Origin: Acidimicrobiia bacterium
GTDB taxonomy: Bacteria; Actinomycetota; Acidimicrobiia; Spongiisociales; UBA11373
Direction: 5' to 3'
Assembly (NCBI GenBank): GCA_029263095.1
Contig: JAJCYA010000002.1
Coordinates: forward strand, 32,511 to 96,510
DNA: 64,000 bases
Of the stretch, positions 6,060 to 50,315 are shown piece by piece; position 1 is the first letter of the stretch, and each line of letters starts with the position of its first letter. The translations under genes were made by a program, and so were the position numbers. The notes beneath the pieces were generated by a model, which made no database searches, had not been told where the DNA came from, and was given only the letters and a program-made list of their open reading frames with translations.

Positions 6060-6108
6060 GTCATGTGTCGATGGCGGCGTACCGAGATCCTGCCGGGATT
6101 GGAGGATC

Positions 6109-7335
6109 TCAGAGGGTGCTGAGTTCCTCCAGGACGCCGAGCACCCGATCGACCTCTTTCGCCGTCGTGTAGTGAACGAATCCGATACGCACCAGCCCGC
6201 CCTGCTCGAGCAGGCCGAGTTGCCGCATAGCTTCGACGGCGTAGTAGTGGCCATCCCATACGTAGATTCCACGTCGGCCCATCTCCGCCGCAACTTCCTG
6301 GGCGCCCATTCCAGCCACGTCGACCGCAAAAGTGGAGACGCGCTGATCTCCGGCATCCGGCGGGCCGTAAAGACGCACGCCCGGCATCTCGGCCACGCCC
6401 GACAGGAATCGGGTGCTGAGGCCGTCCTCATGGGCGCGGATTGCATCAAATGCCGATTGCAGACGGTGGCGACGGTCCTCTCCGGTTCCCAACGAAGCCA
6501 AATAGTCGATCGCGGCTGTAACTGCGGCCAACGACTCGAATGACTGCGTGCCGGTCTCCCACCGATCGGGAGCCGTTTCGGGCGCCGGACGCACCTTGTA
6601 GGGAGTGAGAGTCTCGAGGTGCTCCTTCTTGCCGTACAGCAACCCAGTGTGCGGCCCAAAGAACTTGTAGGCGCTCGCCGCCAGGAAGTCGCACCCGAGC
6701 GTCCTCACATCTGAGAGACGGTGGGCGCTGTAGTGGACGGCATCGACGTACGACAATGCGCCGACAACGGCTGCTGCCTTGACGATCGGAACCAAGTCGG
6801 TCACCGACCCCAACGCATTGGAGGCCGCTGTGACTGCTACGACCCGAGTTCGCTCGTTGATGGCGGATGTGACCGCAACGGCATCGAGCAACCCCGTTGC
6901 AGGGTCGAATGGAACTGGGACGACTTCGGCTCCCTTCTCCTGGGCGACTTCGCGCCACGGAGATACGTTGGCGTCGTGATCCAGGTTGGTGACCACGACG
7001 CGGTCACCCGGCAGCCAGTCCCGTGCGATCGCACGCGACATCGCAAATGTGAGACTCGTCATGTTCTGCCCGAACAGGATCTCGCCTGGGGAAGCACCAA
7101 GTAGGTCGCCGGCCGCGAGGCGCGCCGCATCGGCCAATTCCGCTCCGTCTCTGCTCGCCGCAAAGCTCCCACCGTGGTTGGAGACCCCTTCGCGTAGCCG
7201 CGCTGCAATAGCGTCGATTACGACGCTCGGAACCTGTGTCCCTGCCGGCCCGTCGAGCCAGGCCACTTGCTGCCCATCCTGATGCCGAGAAAGCGCAGGG
7301 AAGGCGGTTCGTACTTCAGCCACGTCATATGCCAT
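6109..7335 (-). CDS. Class-V aminotransferase, a cysteine desulfurase-like protein
   Basis: NALGSVTD...SAYKFFGPHTGLLYG carries the PLP lysine motif SxxK and a fold-type I pattern. The start is probably at MAYDVAEVRTAFPAL (7335), though the ORF extends to 7368. Confidence 0.8.
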   Translation of the reverse strand: MAYDVAEVRTAFPALSRHQDGQQVAWLDGPAGTQVPSVVIDAIAARLREGVSNHGGSFAASRDGAELADAARLAAGDLLGASPGEILFGQNMTSLTFAMSRAIARDWLPGDRVVVTNLDHDANVSPWREVAQEKGAEVVPVPFDPATGLLDAVAVTSAINERTRVVAVTAASNALGSVTDLVPIVKAAAVVGALSYVDAVHYSAHRLSDVRTLGCDFLAASAYKFFGPHTGLLYGKKEHLETLTPYKVRPAPETAPDRWETGTQSFESLAAVTAAIDYLASLGTGEDRRHRLQSAFDAIRAHEDGLSTRFLSGVAEMPGVRLYGPPDAGDQRVSTFAVDVAGMGAQEVAAEMGRRGIYVWDGHYYAVEAMRQLGLLEQGGLVRIGFVHYTTAKEVDRVLGVLEELSTL

Positions 7336-10037: not shown

Positions 10038-11421
10038 TCCTCTGAGATTGGCAGGGTGAACCCGACTATGGCGCCACCCTCATCGGCATTTCGGGCGAAG
10101 ACCTCGCCGCCATGATCCTTGGTCACGGCGGCCACGATGGAGAGACCGAGACCCGATCCGGGTCGAGATCGGGCTTGTGGGGACCGGTAGAACCGCTCGA
10201 AGACATGGTCGATGTCCGCCTCAGGTATTCCGGGGCCATGATCTCTGACGGAGAATTCGTGGCCGCGGAGTCGGATCTCGATCTGCTCGCCCTCGCTCCC
10301 CCACTTTGACGCGTTTTCGAGGAGGTTGGAAACGGATCTCAGGAGTCTGTCTGGTGCACCGTTGATGATGGTTCTCTCCAGGTCGACTGCAACCTCGAGT
10401 CCGCTGCGTCGCTTGAGTCGCTCGATCGCCTGTTCCACTACCGCACTCAGGTCGAGCTCGACCTGAGTCTCCTCGTCACGACCGATGGTGGCGAGATCGA
10501 CGAGTTCACTCACAAGGTGCGACAGCTCGCCCACCTCCGAGGTGAGGTCGGCCAGTAACTCTTCGCGCTCGTCACCCTCTACTGCTCCCAAGGCCAGCAA
10601 CTCGATATTGGTGCGAACACTGGTGAGAGGCGTCCGCAACTCGTGCGAGGCGTCTGTCACCAAGCGCTGCTGACTGGTCCGTGCTTCTTCGAGTGCTGCA
10701 AGCATCCCATTGAATGCATCGCCCAATCGACCGAGCTCGTCACCCCGATCGACCTCGATTCGCGCACCGAGTTCGTGCGTCTCCGCGACGTGTTCCGCGG
10801 CGTCTGTCAACAAGCCGACCGGCCGCAAGCTGCGACCCGCGATCAACCAGGCAATCATCGCCGCGATTGCGACACCACCGATTCCGAGCAAGCTCAGTCG
10901 GAGCCGGAGTCCGGACAGGATTTCGTCGGTCGCGGTGACATCGCGCCCAACCTGGATCGCAACGCCTGGACCGACTGGCCGAGTCAGCATCCGATAGTGA
11001 ACACCGGCGACATCGGCATCCCGAAGGTAGTCGACACCCCCTTCGGCGGCGATCACCAGGTCGCGTTCGTCGACGGGGAGAACGACCGCAGATAGACCTA
11101 TCGTCACGATCGTCCCGCTCGACTCTACGAATTGAGCGATTGCGTCCTCGCGGATTACTTCACCGAAAGGTGTCAGCGATGAGCCGGAGACAGGACCTTG
11201 GTTGCCCCCCAGAACCTGCCCTCGGCCTGGTCTGTTGCGAAACTCATCAAACTCGAGAGCACTAATGAGGCCAACCGTGGGACCCCGCTCCCGAAGGAAA
11301 TCATCGACCTCGCCGCGCGCCTCGTCGCTTGCAAACCCGTATGAGAACAGAGCGACAACGGTCACCGCCATGCCGACTGCTACGACGATGAAGGCTGCGA
11401 GCCTGGCGCGCAGATTCATTG
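10034..11421 (-). CDS. Sensor histidine kinase of an MprB/OmpR-partner type two-component system
   Basis: TM, then HAMP, then the H-box [11 protein letters not shown], an N-box and G-boxes (GSGLGLSIV). The start at [10 protein letters not shown] overlaps the response-regulator stop (ATGA). Confidence 0.88.
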
Positions 11422-12096
11422 CCGACGCGCTACGTACCCGACGCCGCGAACGGTGTGGATCAGTCGTGGCTCGCCTTCCCCTTCCGTCTTTCGCCGCAGA
11501 TACCCGACGTAGACGTCGAGAGAGTTCGACGACGTGGCGAAATCGAACCCCCAAATGCGGTCATAGATCGTGTCGCGCGACAGCACGATGCCGGAATTCA
11601 TGAGGAGCAACTCGAGAAGATCAAACTCTGTCTTGGTCAGATCCACGGGTCGTTCGCCCCTGGCGACGGTCCGCGCCGCCGGGTCGAGTGTGAGATCTGC
11701 CAGGCGAAGCAGACCGGAATCCGGCGGGACCTCGCGGCGTCGCAGGAGCGCACGCACACGTGCCAGCAGCTCCTCGAGGGCAAACGGCTTTGTGAGGTAG
11801 TCGTCGGCGCCCGCGTCGAGTCCTGCGACCCGATCCGCCAGTTCATGCTTGGCTGTGAGCATCAGGATCGGCGTGGCGTCGCCGGCAGCACGCATCTTCC
11901 GGCACACGGCCATGCCGTCGAGTACCGGCATCATGATGTCGAGGACAATCGCATCCGGCGGCTCCTTGGCCGCTTCCACCAGTGCGCGCTCGCCGTTCTC
12001 GGCCGTGACGACGTCGTAGCCCTCGAACTTGAGGGCGCGTTCAACCGACCGTCGCACCGCGTCGTCGTCTTCGGCGATCAGCACTCTGTGTGTCAC
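11416..12096 (-). CDS. OmpR/PhoB-family response regulator
   Basis: [22 protein letters not shown]...DIMMP (receiver domain) plus a winged-helix C-terminus ending ...[11 protein letters not shown]. Confidence 0.9.
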
Positions 12097-12234: not shown

Positions 12235-12705
12235 ATGAGCCTCTACTCCAGGTTCCTTCGAGCGGTCGGCGGACAGAACTGGTTCGCAGCCGTTGCTGCT
12301 CGGACGGTCCCTCGGCTCGACCGCGTCGTCTACCGACTTACCCGAGGCCGCAGGCTGGCGACTCCCCCTTCGGTTCCCACATTCTTTCTCACAACAACCG
12401 GCCGACGCTCCGGGGAGTCCCGGACCGTTGCGGTTTCCTATGTCGAAGACGGCGGCGACTTCGTCGTCGTCGGCTCCAACTGGGGCAAGGCGACAACCCC
12501 CGAGTGGGCATTGAATCTTGCTGCCAACCCTCGAGCATCCGTTGAGATCGGTGGGGAGGAGACCTCCGTCGAGGCGCTGTTGGTGCCGGTCGGCGAGCGA
12601 GACGCCTTGTGGGAGGCGTTCGGATCCATGTGGCCCGCATACGCGGTGTACCGGCGGCGAGCGAAGGACCGGGTCGTACAGATGTTCCGGCTGGTATCGA
12701 CCTGA
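12235..12705 (+). CDS. Deazaflavin (F420)-dependent nitroreductase-family protein, a PNPOx-like split barrel
   Basis: A 156-aa protein with [38 protein letters not shown], characteristic of the DDN/Rv3547 family. Confidence 0.75.
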
Positions 12706-12779
12706 AATACCCCCCGACGCGGCATCGCGACGAGCTTGGTTGATCTTCAGTCGCTGGGACCGGCGGAATAGGCGGCGGG

Positions 12780-38577: not shown

Positions 38578-39660
38578 TTAGGGAGATCGGCCGGCAGGTA
38601 TGAGTTGTCGACGGTGGGGCGGGCTGGTGGGGTCGATACGCATGCCGCGGCCGTGGATGGCGACGTGGTGGTGCCACCAGCACAGGGTGACGAGGTTGGC
38701 AGGGTCGTTGGTGCCGCCTTGGGACCGGGGAACAATGTGGTGCACTTCGAGGCGGTAATTGCTTTGGCATCCGTCGACGGTGCATCCTTGGTCGCGTCCC
38801 AGGATGAAGCGTCGAAGCTTGGGTGGGATCACCCTGGTGGTGGGTCCGACTCCCAGCGGGACACCGGGGCCGGTGTCGACAAGTACCTCGACCGAGCCTG
38901 CGCACATGATCCGATCCATCGTCTCGGGTCCGACCCGGGGGCCGTTGGCGACCATCACGCCCGCCTCGGCTCCGGTTGCTGAGGCGAGGGCGGCGTCGAC
39001 GATGACGGTGACCACCGGGCCGCCGCGACTGGTTGTGGAGGAATCGGATCCGCCAGACAGCCAGTCCTGGGAAAGTGCTACCAGAGCGTCGGCGCGCCGT
39101 TGCCCGGCGGTGGCTTGGGTGTCACGAGGCAGCAGGTCGGCTCGGTCCTCTAGTGCTTTGGTGACGACCCGCCAGTCGTATCCAGTGAGTTCGGCGTGGA
39201 TGAATCCGACCGACTCATCCAGCGACGCCCAACTACGTACTGAACGCTTGGAGTGCGCCTCATGCTCGGTCCTGCGGGTGATACGTTGCTGCAGAGCACG
39301 GAGTCGGCGGATACCGGCGATGTCACGCTCGTCGGCTTGGGCCACCGTGGCGTCATCGGCGCCGACACCCACGAGTGCCGCCACTGCCGCCACTCGGTCA
39401 AACGACCACGACCCGGACTCCAGCTTCGCGATCGTCTGGGAGCGCTCAGGAGTCCGCCGGGCAGCTTCGAGCAGGTCACGAGCGGTGTGTTGGGACACGT
39501 CGAGAGCACCGGCGAGTTCATCGGCACCGGGATCTGGATCGCGCCGCAGAAGCCCACGCAGAAGGTGGACCTGACGTGCTCGGACGGCAGCCACCTGCTG
39601 CTCACACTCACGCAACGCAAGAAACACCTCCTCACGCGACATGATCGGCTCATCGAACAT
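38578..39660 (-). CDS. DUF222 + HNH endonuclease domain protein (REP13E12-like family)
   Basis: C-terminal HNH motif CQSNYRLEVHHIVPRSQGGTNDPANLVTLCWWHH, with an N-terminal DUF222-like helical region. The ORF extends upstream through the recombinase remnant, so the real N-terminus is possibly disrupted. Confidence 0.8.
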   Translation of the reverse strand: MFDEPIMSREEVFLALRECEQQVAAVRARQVHLLRGLLRRDPDPGADELAGALDVSQHTARDLLEAARRTPERSQTIAKLESGSWSFDRVAAVAALVGVGADDATVAQADERDIAGIRRLRALQQRITRRTEHEAHSKRSVRSWASLDESVGFIHAELTGYDWRVVTKALEDRADLLPRDTQATAGQRRADALVALSQDWLSGGSDSSTTSRGGPVVTVIVDAALASATGAEAGVMVANGPRVGPETMDRIMCAGSVEVLVDTGPGVPLGVGPTTRVIPPKLRRFILGRDQGCTVDGCQSNYRLEVHHIVPRSQGGTNDPANLVTLCWWHHHVAIHGRGMRIDPTSPPHRRQLIPAGRSP

Positions 39661-39720
39661 AGGAGCATCATGCCCGCCAGGTGTGACACAAAACGAGCAA
39701 ACCGAGAGGGTCGGACTGAG

Positions 39721-39803
39721 ATGAACATAACCCTCCAGGAAGTGGGCCTGACCGGAGGGTCTAGTTCTCAGCCTGTCGGAAAGCCGACGTCTCTGAACGA
39801 CGA
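39721..39803 (+). pseudogene. Remnant (last ~15-25 codons) of a large serine recombinase C-terminus
   Basis: MNITLQEVGLTGG... parallels the '...APPMNVLLSEVGLKGG' ending of the longer remnant at 42432 and of actinobacterial serine recombinases. Confidence 0.35.
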
Positions 39804-39873
39804 CCCCAACGCGAATGAGTTCCGGCAAAGCCGGAACTCCCAAGGAACGCGAAGCGTTCCCGGTGTTGGAGAG
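39804..39873. repeat. 70-bp repeat copy 1, containing two perfect hairpins; its last 14 nt equal the tRNA-Leu 3' acceptor region
   Basis: CCCCAACGCGAATGAGTTCCGGCAAAGCCGGAACTCCCAAGGAACGCGAAGCGTTCCCGGTGTTGGAGAG. It is identical, bar one T/C, to 42758..42827. Confidence 0.8.
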
Positions 39874-39919
39874 AGGACTCGAACCTCCACGGGGTATTCC
39901 CCCACTAGGCCCTCAACCT
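39860..39919 (-). repeat. Partial copy (3' 60 nt, anticodon loop to 3' end) of tRNA-Leu(GAG), an att-type direct repeat
   Basis: 59/60 identity to 43998..44057. The match ends inside the anticodon stem, which is a classic integrase crossover position. Confidence 0.75.
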
Positions 39920-40157
39920 CGAACCGCTCTTGCAGGCCCGGCGTCCGGGGGGCAACTCGGTGCCCGTCGCTACGCCCCCGGGACACATTGTGCAGCTCCG
40001 AAGGGGGCGGTGGGGAGTCTCCGACCTGCCGATAGAGATGCCTTCATCGCGTTGCACCCACACCGTGGTCCGGGGGTGCCTGTCTGGGTGCCACAACCGG
40101 ATATCCGGTCCTTGCCTCACCTCCCCCCAGCCAAGTTTGGTGGCCTCAGTGTGGCTG

Positions 40158-40481
40158 TCAGGGCTTCCGGGTGGAGTCGTTCGGCGCATCGACGATCGTG
40201 AGGTCGCCGACGCGGTCCACGATCAGCTGAACGGCTCTGGAGTTCGTATTGATGTCCTTGTGCGGGATAGTCATCTTGATTACGCGGGCCGCTCTTCGAA
40301 TCTCTTCAGACCCTATGTTCTCCGAGAGTGACTTGTCTTTCTCGACCAGTTCCCGGGCCTGCTCGGGTGTGAGGTCCTCGGCCTTGTTGGCGGCGTAGAG
40401 ACCAATGACCCGTCTGTCCATCTCTGTGAGATCGAACTCGACGCTGAGCCGACGTTGATTCTGCTTTCGCTCCTCTGACAT
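40158..40481 (-). CDS. Small protein (107-111 aa) with a possible ribbon-helix-helix-like N-terminus, in an operon with the radical-SAM gene
   Basis: A strong SD GAGGAG lies 5 nt upstream of the ATG at 40481. The alternative GTG at 40493 overlaps the rSAM stop. RRLSVEFDLTEMDRRVIGLYA is a beta-strand-helix pattern. Confidence 0.55.
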   Translation of the reverse strand: MSEERKQNQRRLSVEFDLTEMDRRVIGLYAANKAEDLTPEQARELVEKDKSLSENIGSEEIRRAARVIKMTIPHKDINTNSRAVQLIVDRVGDLTIVDAPNDSTRKP

Positions 40482-40489
40482 TGCGCTCC

Positions 40490-42445
40490 TCACACCGTTT
40501 CGCGCCAGACGATTAGGTAGCTCTTGTCAAGCTCCTCGTATCGGCGTGCGACGTTGTCTCGAACCGTCTCAAGCTTACCGCCCGAGATCCCATGTACTAC
40601 TGGAACGATCTCTTCGAACAGGAGCTTCCCCGCCGCGAGCTCCAACAGCAGGCCATCGGTGGGCGAGAGCTTCAGGAGGCCTCGGTGTGATCGAACTGCC
40701 AACCCACCGTGGTCGGGGGCCGTGGTGAGCTTGACGGTCCTCACGGGCTGAAGGCGCTCGAGGCCCAGATCCGCGGCTTGTCTGAAGTCGATCCCCGTGT
40801 GCGCTGCCTGTGGGGCGAACCAATTGACTAAGGATTCGTGGCTCTGAAGCTCTTCATACCACTCGGTGGAGATCCCGTGCGCGTAGTAGGCCCACATGTG
40901 AGCGTCGATAGTCTCGTTGGGTAGGTCCGGCAGAAGCTCCGACATTGTCGCATCGACACGTCGGTCAAACTCGCTCCCCGCCGAGAGGATATCGGTCTTC
41001 GAGAGAGATTCGGTGCGACAGAACACGTGCTCGCAGTCTCGACCAGTGACTGCCAGGGGGTCGAGGATCTGAACCCCGTAACGTTCAGGCGTCTCCGCCA
41101 TCGGCGTGCTGGTGTATGGAGTGAAGAAGGCACCAGATACCGATGTCATGCCAGGCGCCATCCGAAGAAGCGAGTCTGCCACCTCGAAGGTCTCGTGGAG
41201 AGTCTGGGCCGATTCAAGCGCGCCCCCGATGATGAAGTTCGCGTGGAGAGAGAGCAGTCCTGCATCTCGGGCAGCCTCTGCAACATCGAACAGCTGCCGG
41301 TTGGTGGTCTTCTTGTTGTAACTCCGCAGAACCATTTCGGAACCGGATTCCGCTCCAATCTGGAGACGGATAAGGCCGGCGGCGACCATCTTCGGCAGCA
41401 GATCCACGTTTCGCTCTCTCGAGAGCACGTCAACCCGTGCCAGGCAGAACCACTTCACTGCGCCGTCGTACCGTTCGATTAGGCCATCGCAGAACTGGCG
41501 AAGACGGCCCGCAGATGCGGCGAAGTGGTCGTCGTTGATCGCTATGTAGTTTGCTCCTAGGCCTACCAAGTAATCGAACTCCTCCAAGCAGCGTTCCACC
41601 GAATGCATCCTGAAGTTCTTCAGCCCGGCTTCGAGCCCCTCGTAGCAAAAGGCGCACCGGGCGGGGCAGCCGCGGCCAGTGATCATTGCCGGTGCGGATG
41701 AGTCGAATGGCTCGAGCGCCAGTTTCTTCCGATCGGGGATTCCAAGAGTGTCGAGGTTCTCGATGATGCGCCGCACAGGGTTGGTTACAAGCGAGCCATC
41801 GGATGCACGGAATACCAACCCCGCGCAACCTTCAAGTTCGCGGGGCCTAAGCGTCTTCATCTCAAGTAACTCGAGGAATGTCTCCTCACCGTCACCGAAC
41901 ACTCCGATGTCCGCTCCGATCAGCCGATCCATCGTCTCAACGGGTGCAGCGGTGATCTGGGGACCTCCAACGACAATGGACACTCCCGGGCACCGATCTT
42001 TGATGGCCGGAAGGATTCGCCGGACGTCCCACAGATTCTCCTGATCAACGTAGAACCCAAGGACCCGGACATTCCGTTCGGTGACGGTTCGCGAAATCCG
42101 ACCAACCAAGACATCGTTAGATGAGAGTGTGTCAACCAGAACACGGTGCCCGCGATCGTGAGCGTATTGGGCAAGATAGAACAGGCCCAGTTGCATGCGT
42201 CTGAAGTGTCTCCAAAGTACCGGCGAACTCTCTACGAACACCAGAAGCGCGGCGAGGCTCTGTCCGGAGGCCAAGGTCTTAGCCCGAGTGTCGACCACCG
42301 GCTGGTCCTCCTGTGGGTTGATCGGCTCAGAAGCGCCCCACGAAGCTAGTTGAGATGTCAGAACGGTGTGGACGCCCAAGCGGAGCGAATGGTCATGTAG
42401 TCGTTCTAGGTCTGAGGCCTGGGCGCGTCGCTTGCAGGAGCGCAA
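40490..42445 (-). CDS. B12-binding-domain radical SAM enzyme (class B rSAM, 651 aa)
   Basis: N-terminal cobalamin-binding-like domain (LGLFYLAQYAHDRGHRV...GFY...VVGGPQ) and rSAM cluster motif ITGRGCPARCAFCYEG. The start is uncertain, possibly at MQLGLFY (~42199). Confidence 0.85.
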   Translation of the reverse strand: MRSCKRRAQASDLERLHDHSLRLGVHTVLTSQLASWGASEPINPQEDQPVVDTRAKTLASGQSLAALLVFVESSPVLWRHFRRMQLGLFYLAQYAHDRGHRVLVDTLSSNDVLVGRISRTVTERNVRVLGFYVDQENLWDVRRILPAIKDRCPGVSIVVGGPQITAAPVETMDRLIGADIGVFGDGEETFLELLEMKTLRPRELEGCAGLVFRASDGSLVTNPVRRIIENLDTLGIPDRKKLALEPFDSSAPAMITGRGCPARCAFCYEGLEAGLKNFRMHSVERCLEEFDYLVGLGANYIAINDDHFAASAGRLRQFCDGLIERYDGAVKWFCLARVDVLSRERNVDLLPKMVAAGLIRLQIGAESGSEMVLRSYNKKTTNRQLFDVAEAARDAGLLSLHANFIIGGALESAQTLHETFEVADSLLRMAPGMTSVSGAFFTPYTSTPMAETPERYGVQILDPLAVTGRDCEHVFCRTESLSKTDILSAGSEFDRRVDATMSELLPDLPNETIDAHMWAYYAHGISTEWYEELQSHESLVNWFAPQAAHTGIDFRQAADLGLERLQPVRTVKLTTAPDHGGLAVRSHRGLLKLSPTDGLLLELAAGKLLFEEIVPVVHGISGGKLETVRDNVARRYEELDKSYLIVWRETV

Positions 42446-42700
42446 CGAGATTGCTCAGGCGTTTGGGGACGTCGCCCGGCACCTGGCCGACCTCGACATT
42501 GACGAGATCTGGCAGGAAGCGACCGAGAAGGAGCGGTGGGTTATCGCCTCCGCCTTGCTCGACGAGATCACGGTCTACCTGGAGCACCTCGAAGTGGAGG
42601 TCTCAGGAGCACCCCCTATGAACGTCCTGCTGTCAGAAGTGGGACTGAAAGGTGGCCCAGAGGTACCCCCCACCAACTCGCTTCGCTCCCTGACTCCCCC
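42432..42700 (+). pseudogene. C-terminal ~85-codon remnant of a large serine recombinase, with no N-terminal catalytic domain
   Basis: ERNEIAQAFGDVARHLADLDIDEIWQEATEKERWVIASALLDEITVYLEHLEVEVSGAPPMNVLLSEVGLKGG matches the conserved C-terminal 'ER..LI..L...V...DHLEV...GAP.LNV...EVGLK' signature. The recognition is from memory and is not alignment-verified. Confidence 0.45.
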
Positions 42701-42757
42701 ACAAGGGTGTCGGGTTGCGGGAGGGGGGAGTGATAGGCCTGGGAGCGATTGCGCGGC

Positions 42758-42827
42758 CCCCAACGCGAATGAGTTCCGGCAAAGCCGGAACTCCCAAGGA
42801 ACGCGAAGCGTTCCCGGTGTCGGAGAG
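42758..42827. repeat. 70-bp double-hairpin repeat, copy 2
   Basis: 69/70 identical to 39804..39873. It is followed by non-tRNA sequence that forms a 7-bp terminal inverted repeat (GTGTCGG...CCGACAC). Confidence 0.8.
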
Positions 42828-42929
42828 CCTTCGGTGGGTGAGTTAGACCCCGGTTGGCGGATCAGGCAATGGACCGACACAGTGCAAGGAGGTCGCCTCC
42901 ACCACTGATCAGACAGCCGAGCGTAGAAG

Positions 42930-43952
42930 TCAGGTCTCGGCTATCACCAACGTCCAACCGCTTGCCCAACGTGGCCCGACCGCCGACAAACCGGCGGCCT
43001 CTGAACCGCCGAAACCGGAGGCCCGCAGCATCCGTTGAATGTCGCCGGAAGTCTGAGGCGTCGTCGCATTGCCCGAGAGTGAGGCCAGCAGCGCCCAATG
43101 GGCCCGGCTCGGATGCGCCAACCCGCTCTCTTCCCCGAACTTGCCCACGATGATGAGCCGCCCTCCCGGGTTCAACGAGGCGAAGAACTTGCGAAACAAA
43201 CCTTCGGTGTAGATGCCAACGTCGCAATAGACGATCGCATCGAAACCGCTCGGTAGGTCCTCGGCCATGAAGTCAAGGGTCTGGTAGCCGATGCGTCCAG
43301 CGAGGCCAGCCGCATCGGCGATCTCTTGACCTGCAGCACAGACGTTGGCGATGTCAACCACCACCGCCTCGAGGTTGGGATTGCATCGCAGCATGGCCAG
43401 CGACACGACGCCAGAGCCACCCCCGACATCCAGCAGACGTTCAGAGCCGTCGAGAGGGACGAGGTCGGCGACCTGCTCGGCGAGCGGCAAATGCACCTCG
43501 TAGAGCATCTGAGTGAACTCCGACGCACGCTTTGGATCGTCGATCATCTTGGCGAGATAGTCGGGCCGGACAAGGCCCTGCGCCTCCCAGGGAGTCCCCG
43601 GTTCAGTGAGCTGGACGGCGAGATCGCGAACTGCGGGGAACCTCTCTCGGGCCTCCCGGGCCAGGTAGGCCCAGGTCTCCGAGCTGAAGGCATCATTGAT
43701 CGCCTGGCGCGCTGCTATCGACGTCGAGTATCCGTCCGCACCTCGATCCAGCAGGCCCAGCTCGACGATCATCTCCAGCCAGGGGTGGCACCGCTCCTCG
43801 GGGACTCCCGTCGCCTTGGCGACCTCCCTGACAGTCAGGGGCCGCTCATCGAGGAGCCAGAACAGTTTGTGCTCCATGGCCGCCCCGACGGCAGCGGACG
43901 CCACGTAGCGATCGATCAGCTCAAAGATGCTGTCGGGGGTCATTGGACTCAT
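42930..43952 (-). CDS. Class I SAM-dependent O-methyltransferase (family-2 OMT with an N-terminal winged-helix dimerisation domain)
   Basis: LLDVGGGSGVVSLAML (motif I), VVVDIANV, and a C-terminal OMT fold. Confidence 0.8.
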   Translation of the reverse strand: MSPMTPDSIFELIDRYVASAAVGAAMEHKLFWLLDERPLTVREVAKATGVPEERCHPWLEMIVELGLLDRGADGYSTSIAARQAINDAFSSETWAYLAREARERFPAVRDLAVQLTEPGTPWEAQGLVRPDYLAKMIDDPKRASEFTQMLYEVHLPLAEQVADLVPLDGSERLLDVGGGSGVVSLAMLRCNPNLEAVVVDIANVCAAGQEIADAAGLAGRIGYQTLDFMAEDLPSGFDAIVYCDVGIYTEGLFRKFFASLNPGGRLIIVGKFGEESGLAHPSRAHWALLASLSGNATTPQTSGDIQRMLRASGFGGSEAAGLSAVGPRWASGWTLVIAET

Positions 43953-44000
43953 GACCTATGAGTATGACACCCGTCCACCCAAACAACCCCGGGGGTCGCC

Positions 44001-44085
<85 letters not shown>

Positions 44086-44123
44086 ACGTGGGTCCGGGAT
44101 TATACGCCCGTGACGCGGATGCT

Positions 44124-48184: not shown

Positions 48185-48395
48185 CTGTCCGCCGACCTCC
48201 TCCCGCGCCGCGCAAATCGGCCCGGCGAGTATACCGATCGAGCGACGGTCCCCCGCATAAACGCCGGTTAACTGTTTACAAGCCGACAGTTCAATCGGTC
48301 GTTCAGCCGCCCTCAGAACGACAGCCGCGCCAACACCGCTCGGCTGCCGGTCTCTAGCCGATGCGTGACCTCCCAGGCCGCCCCGACCCAAACGA

Positions 48396-48423
48396 GAAGG
48401 GGCCCGCCGAAGCGGGCCCCTTC
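48396..48423 (-). terminator. Strong GC hairpin in the oppA-oppB intergenic region, a possible intra-operon attenuating terminator
   Basis: GAAGGGGCCCGC-CGAA-GCGGGCCCCTTC, a perfect 12-bp stem. On the transcribed (-) strand it is followed by the weak U-tract UUCUCGUUUGGG. Confidence 0.35.
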
Positions 48424-48455
48424 TTCACACGTTGAAGTGTGTATCGGATTCGACC

Positions 48456-50315
48456 TTAGAGGTCGACCCGGTACCACTGCTCAATGTTCCAGGTGTCACC
48501 GGCCTGAGATGGGTTGTGCTTGTAGCCACCCAACTCGTCGGCCCAGACGGCCCCGGGGTCGAGACGTGCATAGAGCGGAATGATCACGACCTGGTCGGCC
48601 AGGATCTGCTCCGCCTCATGAATGATCTCCGTCAGTTCGTCCACGTCCACGGTCGAGTTCATGTCGTCCCGTAGCACGGCGAACCGGGCGGTGTTGTCGT
48701 CGATGACCGACGACGCGCCCTGGTTGAAGCCCTCCGGGTCAGCACCCTCCACTGCGGCAGTGCCCCAGCGGTAGAAGTTCTGGCCGTCCGGCGGTGCGCC
48801 CTCAGGATCGAAGATGTCGTGAATGCTCACGAGACCTGCGAATCCAGGCGTACCAACCCAGGCCCACTCGCCGAGATCCCAGTTACCAAAGTCGAGGGTC
48901 TCGCCGAAGAACAGCGAAGAATCCTCGAGCTGGTTCTCGTAGACAATGCCCGCATCGGCGAACATCTCGACGAACAGCTGCGACAACGTCACACGGGCGT
49001 CGTTGTTCGAAGTGGTCGAGAAGATCGTCGAAACCGGGTTGGCATCGCAATCGGTGTCGTCGCGGGCGCAAAGGTCCGCAACGAGCGCGATAGCGGTGTC
49101 AGGGTTGTAGTCGTACTGATCCCAAGCACCGAGCGAAAGCGTCGGGCTGAAGGCGTCCACGTACGAGCTCATCGGCTCGACCTGGCCCTTGAGGATCTCG
49201 TCCACAATCTTGGTCTTGTCGATGGTGTGAGCCACGGCTTGGCGGTACTCGAGGAACTCGTTGTACGAGCCCGCGTTCCGCACCAGCCGGTTGTCACCGA
49301 ACTGGAAGTTCAAGTGCTCCCAAATCGGACCCGACAGGACCTCCACCGAAGCGCCTTCACTCTCGAGGGTCTGAAGATCCTCGATCGTTTCAATGCTCGG
49401 CGGCGGATTGATGACGTCGACCTCACGTGCCTTGAACGAGTTGATCAGGGCTGCGGTCTCGGGAATGAACCGGAAGATGACGGAATCGAGGAAAGGCAGC
49501 TGCTGCCCGGTCTCGGCATCGGTCTTCCAGTAGTTCGCGTTACGCGTCAGGCGAATGAACTCGCCCTTCTGCCACTGATCGAATTCGAACGGACCACCCG
49601 ACACCCACATGGTGTCGTTCCAGTCGTTGATGAAGTCCGAACCCTCCACATCGTGCTTCGGAATCAGGAAGCCGAAGATCAGCTCAGCCTGAACGGTCGG
49701 AGCAGTGAGGGTGAATTCGAATGTCTTGGGGCCTGCCACAACAGTCGCCGGATCAATGTCTTCGTAGACGGTCCGGGTGATCGGCAGATCGGGATCCATG
49801 ATCGTGTTGTACGTGAACTCGAAGTCATCCCCAGAAATGGGGGTGCCATCGGCCCACACAGCCTCATCAAGAATCGTGTACCGAATGGTCTCGGTACCGT
49901 CTGCATTGATCGAAATTCCGCCGTTGGCCACGGTCGGGAGCTCCGTCACGACTTCCGGGATCAACTCGAGGGTGAACCCATCGATGTCCTGGACGCCGGT
50001 CCAATACCCATTGCCCACGATCGAAACGATGAAGTTGTCACCGCCCGGTGCGAAGGTGTTGAGCGTCGGAGGCTCCTGGTCACTGGCAACGATCGCCTCA
50101 CCACCGTAAGGCTTGCCCGTGGGGGCGGCCTCAGTGGTGGTAGGAGCGGCGGCTGTCGTGGTCGGCGCTGCAGTGGTAGTGGTCGTCGCTGCCGGTGCTG
50201 AAGTCGTTCCCGTCGTCTCTGCCGTGTCGTCGTCACCGCAAGCGGCCACGACGAGGACAAATGCGAGGAGAAGACCCAGCCACGTCAAGCTACGACGTTG
50301 CCACAGGTGCTTCAA
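48456..50315 (-). CDS. oppA: Peptide ABC transporter substrate-binding lipoprotein (SBP family 5, OppA-like)
   Basis: Lipobox VVAACGDD, a Thr/Ala-rich linker, and family-5 SBP length and motifs. Confidence 0.85.
   Translation of the reverse strand: MKHLWQRRSLTWLGLLLAFVLVVAACGDDDTAETTGTTSAPAATTTTTAAPTTTAAAPTTTEAAPTGKPYGGEAIVASDQEPPTLNTFAPGGDNFIVSIVGNGYWTGVQDIDGFTLELIPEVVTELPTVANGGISINADGTETIRYTILDEAVWADGTPISGDDFEFTYNTIMDPDLPITRTVYEDIDPATVVAGPKTFEFTLTAPTVQAELIFGFLIPKHDVEGSDFINDWNDTMWVSGGPFEFDQWQKGEFIRLTRNANYWKTDAETGQQLPFLDSVIFRFIPETAALINSFKAREVDVINPPPSIETIEDLQTLESEGASVEVLSGPIWEHLNFQFGDNRLVRNAGSYNEFLEYRQAVAHTIDKTKIVDEILKGQVEPMSSYVDAFSPTLSLGAWDQYDYNPDTAIALVADLCARDDTDCDANPVSTIFSTTSNNDARVTLSQLFVEMFADAGIVYENQLEDSSLFFGETLDFGNWDLGEWAWVGTPGFAGLVSIHDIFDPEGAPPDGQNFYRWGTAAVEGADPEGFNQGASSVIDDNTARFAVLRDDMNSTVDVDELTEIIHEAEQILADQVVIIPLYARLDPGAVWADELGGYKHNPSQAGDTWNIEQWYRVDL

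Follow-up and report, generated by a model that had tools for sequence, protein, structure and literature searches.

We analyzed a 64-kb stretch of an Acidimicrobiia bacterium genome (contig JAJCYA010000002.1; hereafter the window), in which two 70-nt repeats each follow the remains of a large serine recombinase (LSR) gene and end in the acceptor sequence of a tRNA-Leu gene. Our data make it reasonably probable that successive integrations at the 3' end of a single tRNA-Leu(GAG) gene are recorded here in layers and that the 70-mer is a former tRNA 3' end together with its trailer. The two copies are young, recombination-made duplicates of that old 3' end, i.e., ordinary integration scars and not a new functional site. 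In what follows, the ~58-nt twin hairpin is called the unit, its two hairpins hp1 and hp2, and the 12-14-nt tRNA-Leu acceptor end the core. The P arm is the LSR coding arm on the left side of the core, P'b is the conserved left end of LSR-family elements, and Q is the present trailer of the intact tRNA; the three core positions are sites 1, 2, and 3. Loci of relatives are labeled L001-L028, and two full-length LSR homologues P0029 and P0034.

The 70-mers, the core, and the hairpin unit

The 70-mers (39804-39873 and 42758-42827) are identical at 69 of 70 positions, as the initial annotation of this DNA had reported, and a repeat search found just these two copies in the window (expected by shuffling, 0). 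Each contains two perfect hairpins, hp1 (GAGTTCCGGC-AAA-GCCGGAACTC, 10-bp stem) and hp2 (GGAACGC-GAA-GCGTTCC, 7-bp stem), and folds far better than its shuffled versions (z = -6.3 for the plus strand and -6.6 for the minus strand). The tRNA-Leu acceptor sequence seen earlier at the end of the repeat was recovered: the acceptor end of tRNA-Leu(GAG), read as its reverse complement, gives the last 12-14 nt. The 70-mer is therefore made of two parts, the unit (56-58 nt) and the tRNA end, the latter being the LSR crossover core. Both remnant ORFs continue through the 70-mer in the same frame, which is without significance for dead genes.

The 14-nt core occurs three times in the window (starting at 39860, 42814, and 44000). 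Site 1 consists of the unit, the core, a 58-nt tRNA fragment, and a conserved arm; site 2 of the unit, the core, and P'b; and site 3 of the diverged unit-like trailer Q, the core, and the whole tRNA. Site 1 has its left arm in common with site 2 and its right arm in common with site 3, with 115 of 116 positions identical. Its part shared with site 3 is a direct repeat (39860-39919 vs 43999-44058, one mismatch) that bounds a 4.1-kb segment, and the sole difference between fragment and gene is a C-to-T change in the non-functional copy that would disrupt an acceptor-stem pair. The identity of copy 1 does continue into the tRNA, as first described, but only into a 58-nt 3' fragment (39862-39919), for which neither ARAGORN nor Rfam returned a match; the intact gene lies at 44001-44087. 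Given the 115/116 composite repeat, we attribute the near-identity of the 70-mers to recent recombination-made duplication rather than to selection. The earlier argument that strict conservation beside diverged coding sequence points to function loses its force, as the flanking coding remnants come from different LSR subfamilies.

The unit was also found in relatives. A scan of a genome collection located exact hp1 once per genome in three Acidimicrobiaceae/Acidimicrobiia metagenome-assembled genomes (MAGs), each time at tRNA-Leu (L010, L011, and L014). In L010 and L014, the tRNA-Leu gene is intact, unoccupied, and without an LSR, and the hairpin array that contains hp1 follows it immediately on the 3' side; in L011 the order is a chromosomal acetyltransferase gene, the hairpin array, the core, and P'b, with no LSR tail on the left (attL-like). 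At L017 (MAG bin.66), two complete units lie in tandem upstream of purC, outside any tRNA or att context, and a partial copy occurs at L009 of the same MAG. The L017 units are 88% identical to the window unit, and their hp2 stem is longer by a matched 2 bp per arm. Since these tandem copies define a natural unit end, and the identity of the 70-mers stops there on the left, we regard the unit as a discrete trailer-type element (host-side, B) and not as an LSR arm. A GC-rich hairpin, variable in sequence, abuts the tRNA 3' end at every related locus that lacks an LSR-tail trailer. Judged by these contexts, the hairpins are most likely a tRNA 3' trailer, a (U-less) terminator-like structure, or a repetitive extragenic palindromic (REP)-like unit, and not a recombinase binding site. 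Of the functional site proposed initially, the 14-nt end stands, being the att core, whereas the recombinase does not have its own site in the 56-58-nt double hairpin.

Several searches for other roles of the 70-mer were negative. Rfam (E <= 1) gave nothing at the 70-mers, its only matches in the window being the tRNA (44003-44087) and a chance match resembling a small nucleolar RNA, and a transfer-messenger RNA or other structured RNA formed by the fragment and its adjoining arm was likewise unsupported by Rfam. A promoter and terminator scan detected no promoter-like or U-tailed terminator-like site at either 70-mer (tails ATTCGCGTT and similar); the unit may act as a U-less terminator, a kind that the U-run criterion would miss. 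A scan of viral contigs for hp1 gave 0 matches, metagenomes searched for the hp1-hp2 junction yielded a single chance match inside a coding region, and a protein search with the antisense ORF across the tRNA fragment and unit gave no candidates.

An identical hairpin (GAGTTCCGGC-AAA/TTT-GCCGGAACTC) occurs twice in each of two MAGs labeled proteobacterial (L012, L016, L018, and L020). These hairpins lie inside longer palindromes, beside other hairpins and in AT-richer surroundings, and may represent an unrelated REP family or convergence.

Recombinase remnants and att architecture

The two remnants had been read as serine-recombinase C-termini with ~60% nucleotide identity to each other, and both points were confirmed. 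Remnant 1 aligns to residues 432-475 of P0029 and remnant 2 to residues 389-480 of P0034, in each case its closest relative, and the tails share 26 of 42 nt (62%) over the common MN..EVGL..GG stretch. By these alignments, both are genuine LSR C-termini, from a P0029-like and a P0034-like subfamily, respectively. Remnant 1 is more than the last ~15 codons first noted: it spans ~47 aa (39649-39789) and has its own decayed core. Translated, 42420-42827 matches 21 proteins, all of them short, at E values down to 4e-32, and many of these continue into antisense tRNA-Leu ('GVGERTRTST'). A longer remnant in L001 comprises a recombinase domain, a zinc ribbon, and a coiled coil, and used as a query it retrieved hundreds of full-length proteins, the closest of 474-519 aa with PF00239 (Resolvase), PF07508 (Recombinase), and PF13408 (Zn-ribbon). 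Several of the full-length homologues are labeled recombinase family proteins of Acidimicrobiia. Pfam found no domain in either window remnant because the LSR tail falls outside its models. In tblastn searches of the window, 139 family proteins detected no LSR part beyond the two tails, and no intact LSR gene with an N-terminal catalytic resolvase domain was found.

In this family, the P arm is the DNA of the last ~10 LSR codons (GGAGGGTC...GTGTCGGAGAG), with the conserved coding sequence GGAGGGTCnnnTTnTnAnnGTGTCGGAGAG. It is kept at the DNA level in L001, L002, L003, L006, L023, L026, L027, and L028, and in five of these (L001, L002, L003, L026, and L028) the P arm and core directly adjoin tRNA-Leu sequence with no hairpin module between. 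What follows on the 3' side is the tRNA body in L001 and L002, a tRNA fragment in L003, L026, and L028, and P'b (CCTTCGGTGG...GACCC...GGTGGAGGCT) in L023 and at the distal sites of L001 and L006. The window P'b aligns with L001 4641-, L006 4708-, L023 888-, L011 2775-, L026 6075-, L028 6184-, and L027 356-/12322-. Two elements are complete: in L026, the core at 6065 and P'b lead through LSR P0034 to a core at 11487, and in L028, the core at 6174 and P'b lead through LSR P0029 to a core at 11409. Alignment to these elements identifies P'b as their left end, and because they define both ends, the crossover can be placed in GGAGA(G/A) at the tRNA acceptor end. Use of the whole 72-nt tRNA identity by the LSR was considered and rejected, as the junctions in L023, L001, L006, L027, and window site 2 switch within GGAGA(G/A).

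As read from these junctions, the LSR ORF spans its own attP core, so that integration exchanges the C-terminal residues, which vary by junction type because the ORF runs through the core. When the 3' ends were compared in L001, L002, L023, L026, L027, and L028, the last residues were 'GVGERTRTST...' at junctions into tRNA, 'GVGEPSV..WRLRPW' at those into P'b, and 'GVGEAFRLRTT..' in L027. More distant LSR members end in antisense translations of other tRNA T-arms (e.g., 'ERGDSNPH').

These arms allow the window sites to be assigned. An attP or attR site would have the family P half-site to the left of the core, and at both site 1 and site 2 that position is taken by hp2. Site 2 combines a host-side trailer arm, the core, and the element's P' arm, the same architecture as in L011. 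By its arms, site 2 is accordingly attL-like and not attP-like as first proposed, because the arm left of its core is trailer-type (B-type). Copy 1, previously called attR-like, also has a trailer-type left arm and, on the same grounds, is a displaced attB-like relic of the old tRNA 3' end. Upstream of it, remnant 1 is followed in order by its own P arm, the decayed core, a ~20-nt stub, and only then the unit; the stub agrees with the right arm that full-length LSR P0029 has in L028 (CCGACGT-GAAC). The 24 nt after this decayed core had been considered as a P'b arm completing a 50-bp attP-like site. That candidate was dropped since L028 carries CCGACGT..GAAC as the right arm of a full-length LSR, and since GGGGTCGT belongs to the unit (second L017 copy).

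P0034 in L026 carries an in-frame 78-nt two-hairpin insert (11397-11474) between 'KGG' and the P arm, and remnant 2 has a homologous, longer insert (42660-42757). A gene for a DUF222 and HNH endonuclease protein (38578-39660, minus strand) overlaps with its start the upstream part of remnant 1 and may have truncated the LSR there. Genes of this type are found in mycobacterial REP13E12-like repeats. An HNH gene is also present in L026, ~9 kb from the LSR.

Stacked integrations and competing explanations

Two kinds of event would account for the three sites. In the one (L-type), actinobacterial LSR elements would recombine at the ~11-14-bp core at the tRNA acceptor end (GTGTCGGAGAG). The LSR gene would lie at the right end of the element, with the P arm in its last ~10 codons, so that after integration the LSR tail adjoins the tRNA, and the element's left end (P'b) would adjoin whatever earlier lay after the tRNA. 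In the other (T-type), segments bearing their own last ~58 nt of tRNA and trailer would insert at the anticodon stem, pushing the old tRNA 3' end and its trailer away; such insertions would alternate with LSR integration at the acceptor end. This second class of site-specific insertion is suggested by the 58-nt fragment, whose breakpoint (GGCCCTCAACCT|) is identical in the window, L003, L026, and L001, together with the ~110 nt beyond it, which are homologous between the window and L003. Copy 1 would then keep 58 nt of tRNA because the old 3' end was displaced by a T-type insertion, and copy 2 only the core followed by P'b because the 3' end was split by an L-type integration.

The initial annotation had also envisaged tandem or nested integrations with truncated recombinases, and the relatives bear this out: stacks of two or three cores, in which truncated tails lie distal to newer elements, are common (L001, L002, L006, L026, and L027). 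In L001 and L006, P'b comes after the distal tails. L001 6228-6281 is a tRNA-Leu piece that runs from inside the LSR core (AGAGAGGAC...) as far as the breakpoint in the anticodon stem and has a recombination point at either end; to its left there is no LSR tail and no trailer. In L026, the tRNA fragment and the intact tRNA are separated by 1.27 kb, and near either end of this segment stands one copy of a direct repeat, AAATGTCAC(T/C)T(C/T)TTTGTCACCTC (11655-11680 and 12697-12720). These repeats may be arm-type binding sites of a putative anticodon-stem recombinase.

We propose the following history for the window, which seems to us the most economical. An old LSR element would have left tail 1, after which the tRNA gained the unit as its trailer. 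A ~2.8-kb segment carrying the conserved arm, a 111-aa ORF, a B12-radical SAM gene, and tail 2 would then have inserted at the anticodon stem, bringing its own unit and tRNA end and so giving the 116-nt direct repeat. Integration of an LSR-type element at the core of the tRNA-proximal repeat would have produced site 2, and a later deletion or replacement would have left a methyltransferase gene and the new trailer Q beside the tRNA.

Some observations weigh against this scheme. Other orders of the five steps fit equally well. No recombinase for T-type insertions was found, the 4.1-kb and 2.95-kb segments and the 1.27-kb segment of L026 being without an integrase. To the right of site 2, the LSR tail expected beside the tRNA is missing from the element, and extra deletion or replacement steps are needed to explain this. 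The L026 attL trailer is not obviously hairpin-like. Finally, an LSR tail precedes both unit copies, which in our model is a consequence of stacking but could also reflect a tighter link between unit and LSR.

In a rival reading, which follows the initial annotation, the 70-mer would supply an LSR sub-lineage with its functional attachment arm (P arm and core), with copy 2 as an intact attP, copy 1 as an attR, and the hairpins as a bidirectional terminator between the integrase and the regenerated tRNA. In its favor, each 70-mer comes directly after an LSR tail, and P0034 in L026, the nearest relative of full length, accommodates two hairpins in its own tail (the 78-nt insert); it is also plausible that an element would bring a trailer for the tRNA it regenerates. 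We nevertheless consider this quite unlikely, as every relative examined, whether full-length or truncated, has the conserved coding P arm in the ~20 bp left of the core, the L026 insert lies upstream of the P arm and not in its place, and in tail 1 a P arm and a decayed core are still present ahead of the unit. Moreover, hp1 stands beside LSR-free tRNA-Leu genes (L010 and L014), L017 has the complete unit at a place that is not an att site, and the units are identical though their tails come from different subfamilies. A related notion, which we rate as very unlikely, is that the unit behaves as a miniature passenger, which either homes to the LSR crossover core at tRNA-Leu 3' ends or is carried with it; it could be, e.g., a non-autonomous mini-element or a REP-like unit recognized together with the core. 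This would explain why both copies lie between an LSR tail and a core, and the unit would then rebuild the tRNA trailer or terminator at each LSR landing.

The twin hairpin (~58-66 nt) might instead be a repeat of the REP or miniature inverted-repeat transposable element (MITE) kind, inserted independently at two cores or homogenized, its near-identity reflecting within-genome repeat homogeneity. The initial annotation had named a dispersed repeat outside tRNA and att contexts as a contrary finding, and the tandem L017 units are in part such a case, with discrete unit ends that match those of the window unit and a further partial copy in L009, whereas both window copies sit at the core. The paired 2-bp extension that preserves hp2 and the hairpin arrays with partial internal duplication after tRNA-Leu in L010 and L011 also fit a repeat. 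On balance we find this unlikely: the window holds 2 copies alone, both at the same 14-nt core, exact hp1 is found once per genome in three MAGs and always at tRNA-Leu, and the only metagenome match to the hp1-hp2 junction was the chance coding one. No RAYT (REP-associated tyrosine transposase) or IS200-type gene was noticed near the locus, with no genome-wide search made, and independent insertion leaves the arm-sharing of the three sites unexplained. Purifying selection on a small RNA or regulatory structure would account for a fold that is very stable and non-random on both strands and for hairpins kept in relatives. It is nonetheless highly improbable, given that no Rfam family, promoter-like site, or U-tailed terminator-like site was detected, that copy 1 is located in a dead tRNA fragment, and that 99% identity beside 62% coding identity far exceeds the selective need of a hairpin whose L017 version is 88% identical with stem changes. 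The stacking of integrations at one tRNA-Leu gene remains our preferred explanation.

Known systems, cargo, and neighboring genes

A serine-recombinase group of integrative and conjugative elements of actinomycetes (AICEs) in Mycobacterium integrates into one tRNA-Leu gene (Ghinet et al. 2011, PMC3218068), and integration of serine recombinases into tRNA genes is reported to be rare (PMC3218068; see also PMC10654092). Like those AICEs (PMC3218068), the family described here has an actinobacterial LSR with Resolvase, Recombinase, and Zn-ribbon domains and targets a tRNA-Leu 3' end; the two are likened by description, not by sequence, and here the host is Acidimicrobiia-like and the window holds dead C-terminal stubs only. 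A weak DUF87 match was found in L027. LSRs that target tRNA-Leu are rare but already described in actinobacterial AICEs, and the locus is a fresh example of a known locus kind.

The region also resembles genomic islands and tandem accretion at tRNA genes (tyrosine-integrase islands; SXT/R391 arrays), in that a 58-60-nt tRNA 3' direct repeat bounds the 4.1-kb segment, a displaced fragment lies on the far side, and one hot spot was hit repeatedly. It differs in that the repeat-bounded segments contain no integrase and two breakpoints, at the acceptor end and the anticodon stem, alternate. Of the two hallmarks of a tRNA-targeted island, the tRNA 3' direct repeat is present and a cognate integrase inside the island is absent. 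As in the canonical LSR att sites of phiC31, Bxb1, and phiRv1, there is a short common core in a ~50-bp site with an outer inverted GGGTC...GACCC, and arms are exchanged at attL and attR. Unlike in those systems, the attP overlaps the integrase's own 3' coding end, and new elements appear to integrate beside a resident tail; the left arm of the LSR target seems to be loosely constrained. REP palindromes and bacterial interspersed mosaic elements (BIMEs) are likewise short, GC-rich, perfect extragenic hairpins in tandem or clustered arrays with discrete unit ends, whereas the unit here has a very low observed copy number, no RAYT gene noticed nearby, and a tie to one tRNA trailer.

We suggest annotating the region as decayed mobile-element junctions, comprising attL-like sites and tRNA 3' ends that were displaced, instead of as a novel RNA or att element (Table 1). 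It documents an Acidimicrobiia-type branch of the rare tRNA-Leu-targeting serine integrases and the stacking of new elements beside the stubs of old ones, findings that could be of use in delimiting the att sites of this integrase clade. There is a warning here for genome scans as well: short repeats that are almost identical and lie beside diverged pseudogenes can have arisen by recombination and need not be selected sites.

Table 1. Features of the tRNA-Leu(GAG) region, with positions in the window
Feature	Position	Strand	Basis or remarks
LSR C-terminal remnant 1, ~47 aa, P0029-like 'TGG' subfamily	39649..39789	+	tblastn of LSR tails against the window
Old junction: canonical P arm (GGAGGGTCTAGTTCTCAGCC), decayed core (TGTCGGAAAG, 39774-39783), ~20-nt stub (CCGACGTCTCTGAACGACGA)	39754..39803	+	alignment with relatives
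Twin-hairpin trailer unit, copy 1	39804..39861	-	hp1 39817-39839, hp2 39844-39860; 88% identical to L017 tandem units
Core copy 1 (CCGGTGTTGGAGAG)	39860..39873	.	T variant disrupts acceptor-stem pair
Displaced 58-nt 3' fragment of tRNA-Leu(GAG), anticodon stem to ACC, not a tRNA gene	39862..39919	-	repeat vs 43999-44058
Conserved arm of inserted segment	39920..40030	.	homologous to L003 3745-3830
Cargo region overall	40158..42445	-	GC 0.58-0.61 vs 0.62-0.67 in flanks
111-aa ORF, downstream of radical SAM gene	40158-40493	-	no Pfam match
B12-binding radical SAM gene, true start uncertain	40490-42445	-	Pfam PF02310, PF04055
LSR C-terminal remnant 2, P0034-like 'KGG' subfamily, including start of hairpin-rich insert X	42423..42701	+	LSR-tail homology
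Twin-hairpin trailer unit, copy 2	42758..42815	-	hp1 42771-42793, hp2 42798-42814
Core copy 2 (CCGGTGTCGGAGAG)	42814..42827	.	core scan
P'b arm, conserved left end of LSR-family element (CCTTCGGTGGGTGAGTTAGACCCCGGTTGGCGGATCAGG...)	42828..42900	+	alignment with relatives' elements
O-methyltransferase gene, cargo between site 2 and tRNA	42930..43952	-	Pfam PF00891, PF08100
Q, present tRNA trailer	43953..43999	-	weakly homologous to unit (ATGAGT...CCCAA...small palindrome...CC); repeat match 88%
Core copy 3, inside/abutting functional tRNA 3' end	44000..44013	.	core scan
Intact tRNA-Leu(GAG), sole tRNA gene in the window	44001-44087	-	ARAGORN; Rfam RF00005, 50.7 bits

No integrase was found within 39920-44000, where the ORFs are the radical SAM gene, the 111-aa ORF, the LSR stub, and the O-methyltransferase gene; an exact sequence look-up of the last gave no record. 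The radical SAM gene and the 111-aa ORF overlap by 4 nt, and the O-methyltransferase gene lies 0.5 kb upstream on the same strand. The three could be island cargo in the form of a small cassette for peptide modification.

Genes close to the window tRNA-Leu include secG-tpi-pgk, which directly adjoin tRNA-Leu in L001 and L002, and a substrate-binding gene beside the L014 tRNA has a homologue at window positions 48459-49685. Because of these shared neighbors, the window locus is probably orthologous to the tRNA-Leu loci of the relatives. An MscS look-up returned just one identical contig, 2.3 kb long, which stops short of the locus. The strongest perfect hairpin of the window (48395-48424; 13-bp stem, AGAAGGGGCCCGC-CGAA-GCGGGCCCCTTCT) lies just below this substrate-binding-protein homologue, which belongs to an ATP-binding cassette (ABC) transporter cluster, and looks terminator-like.

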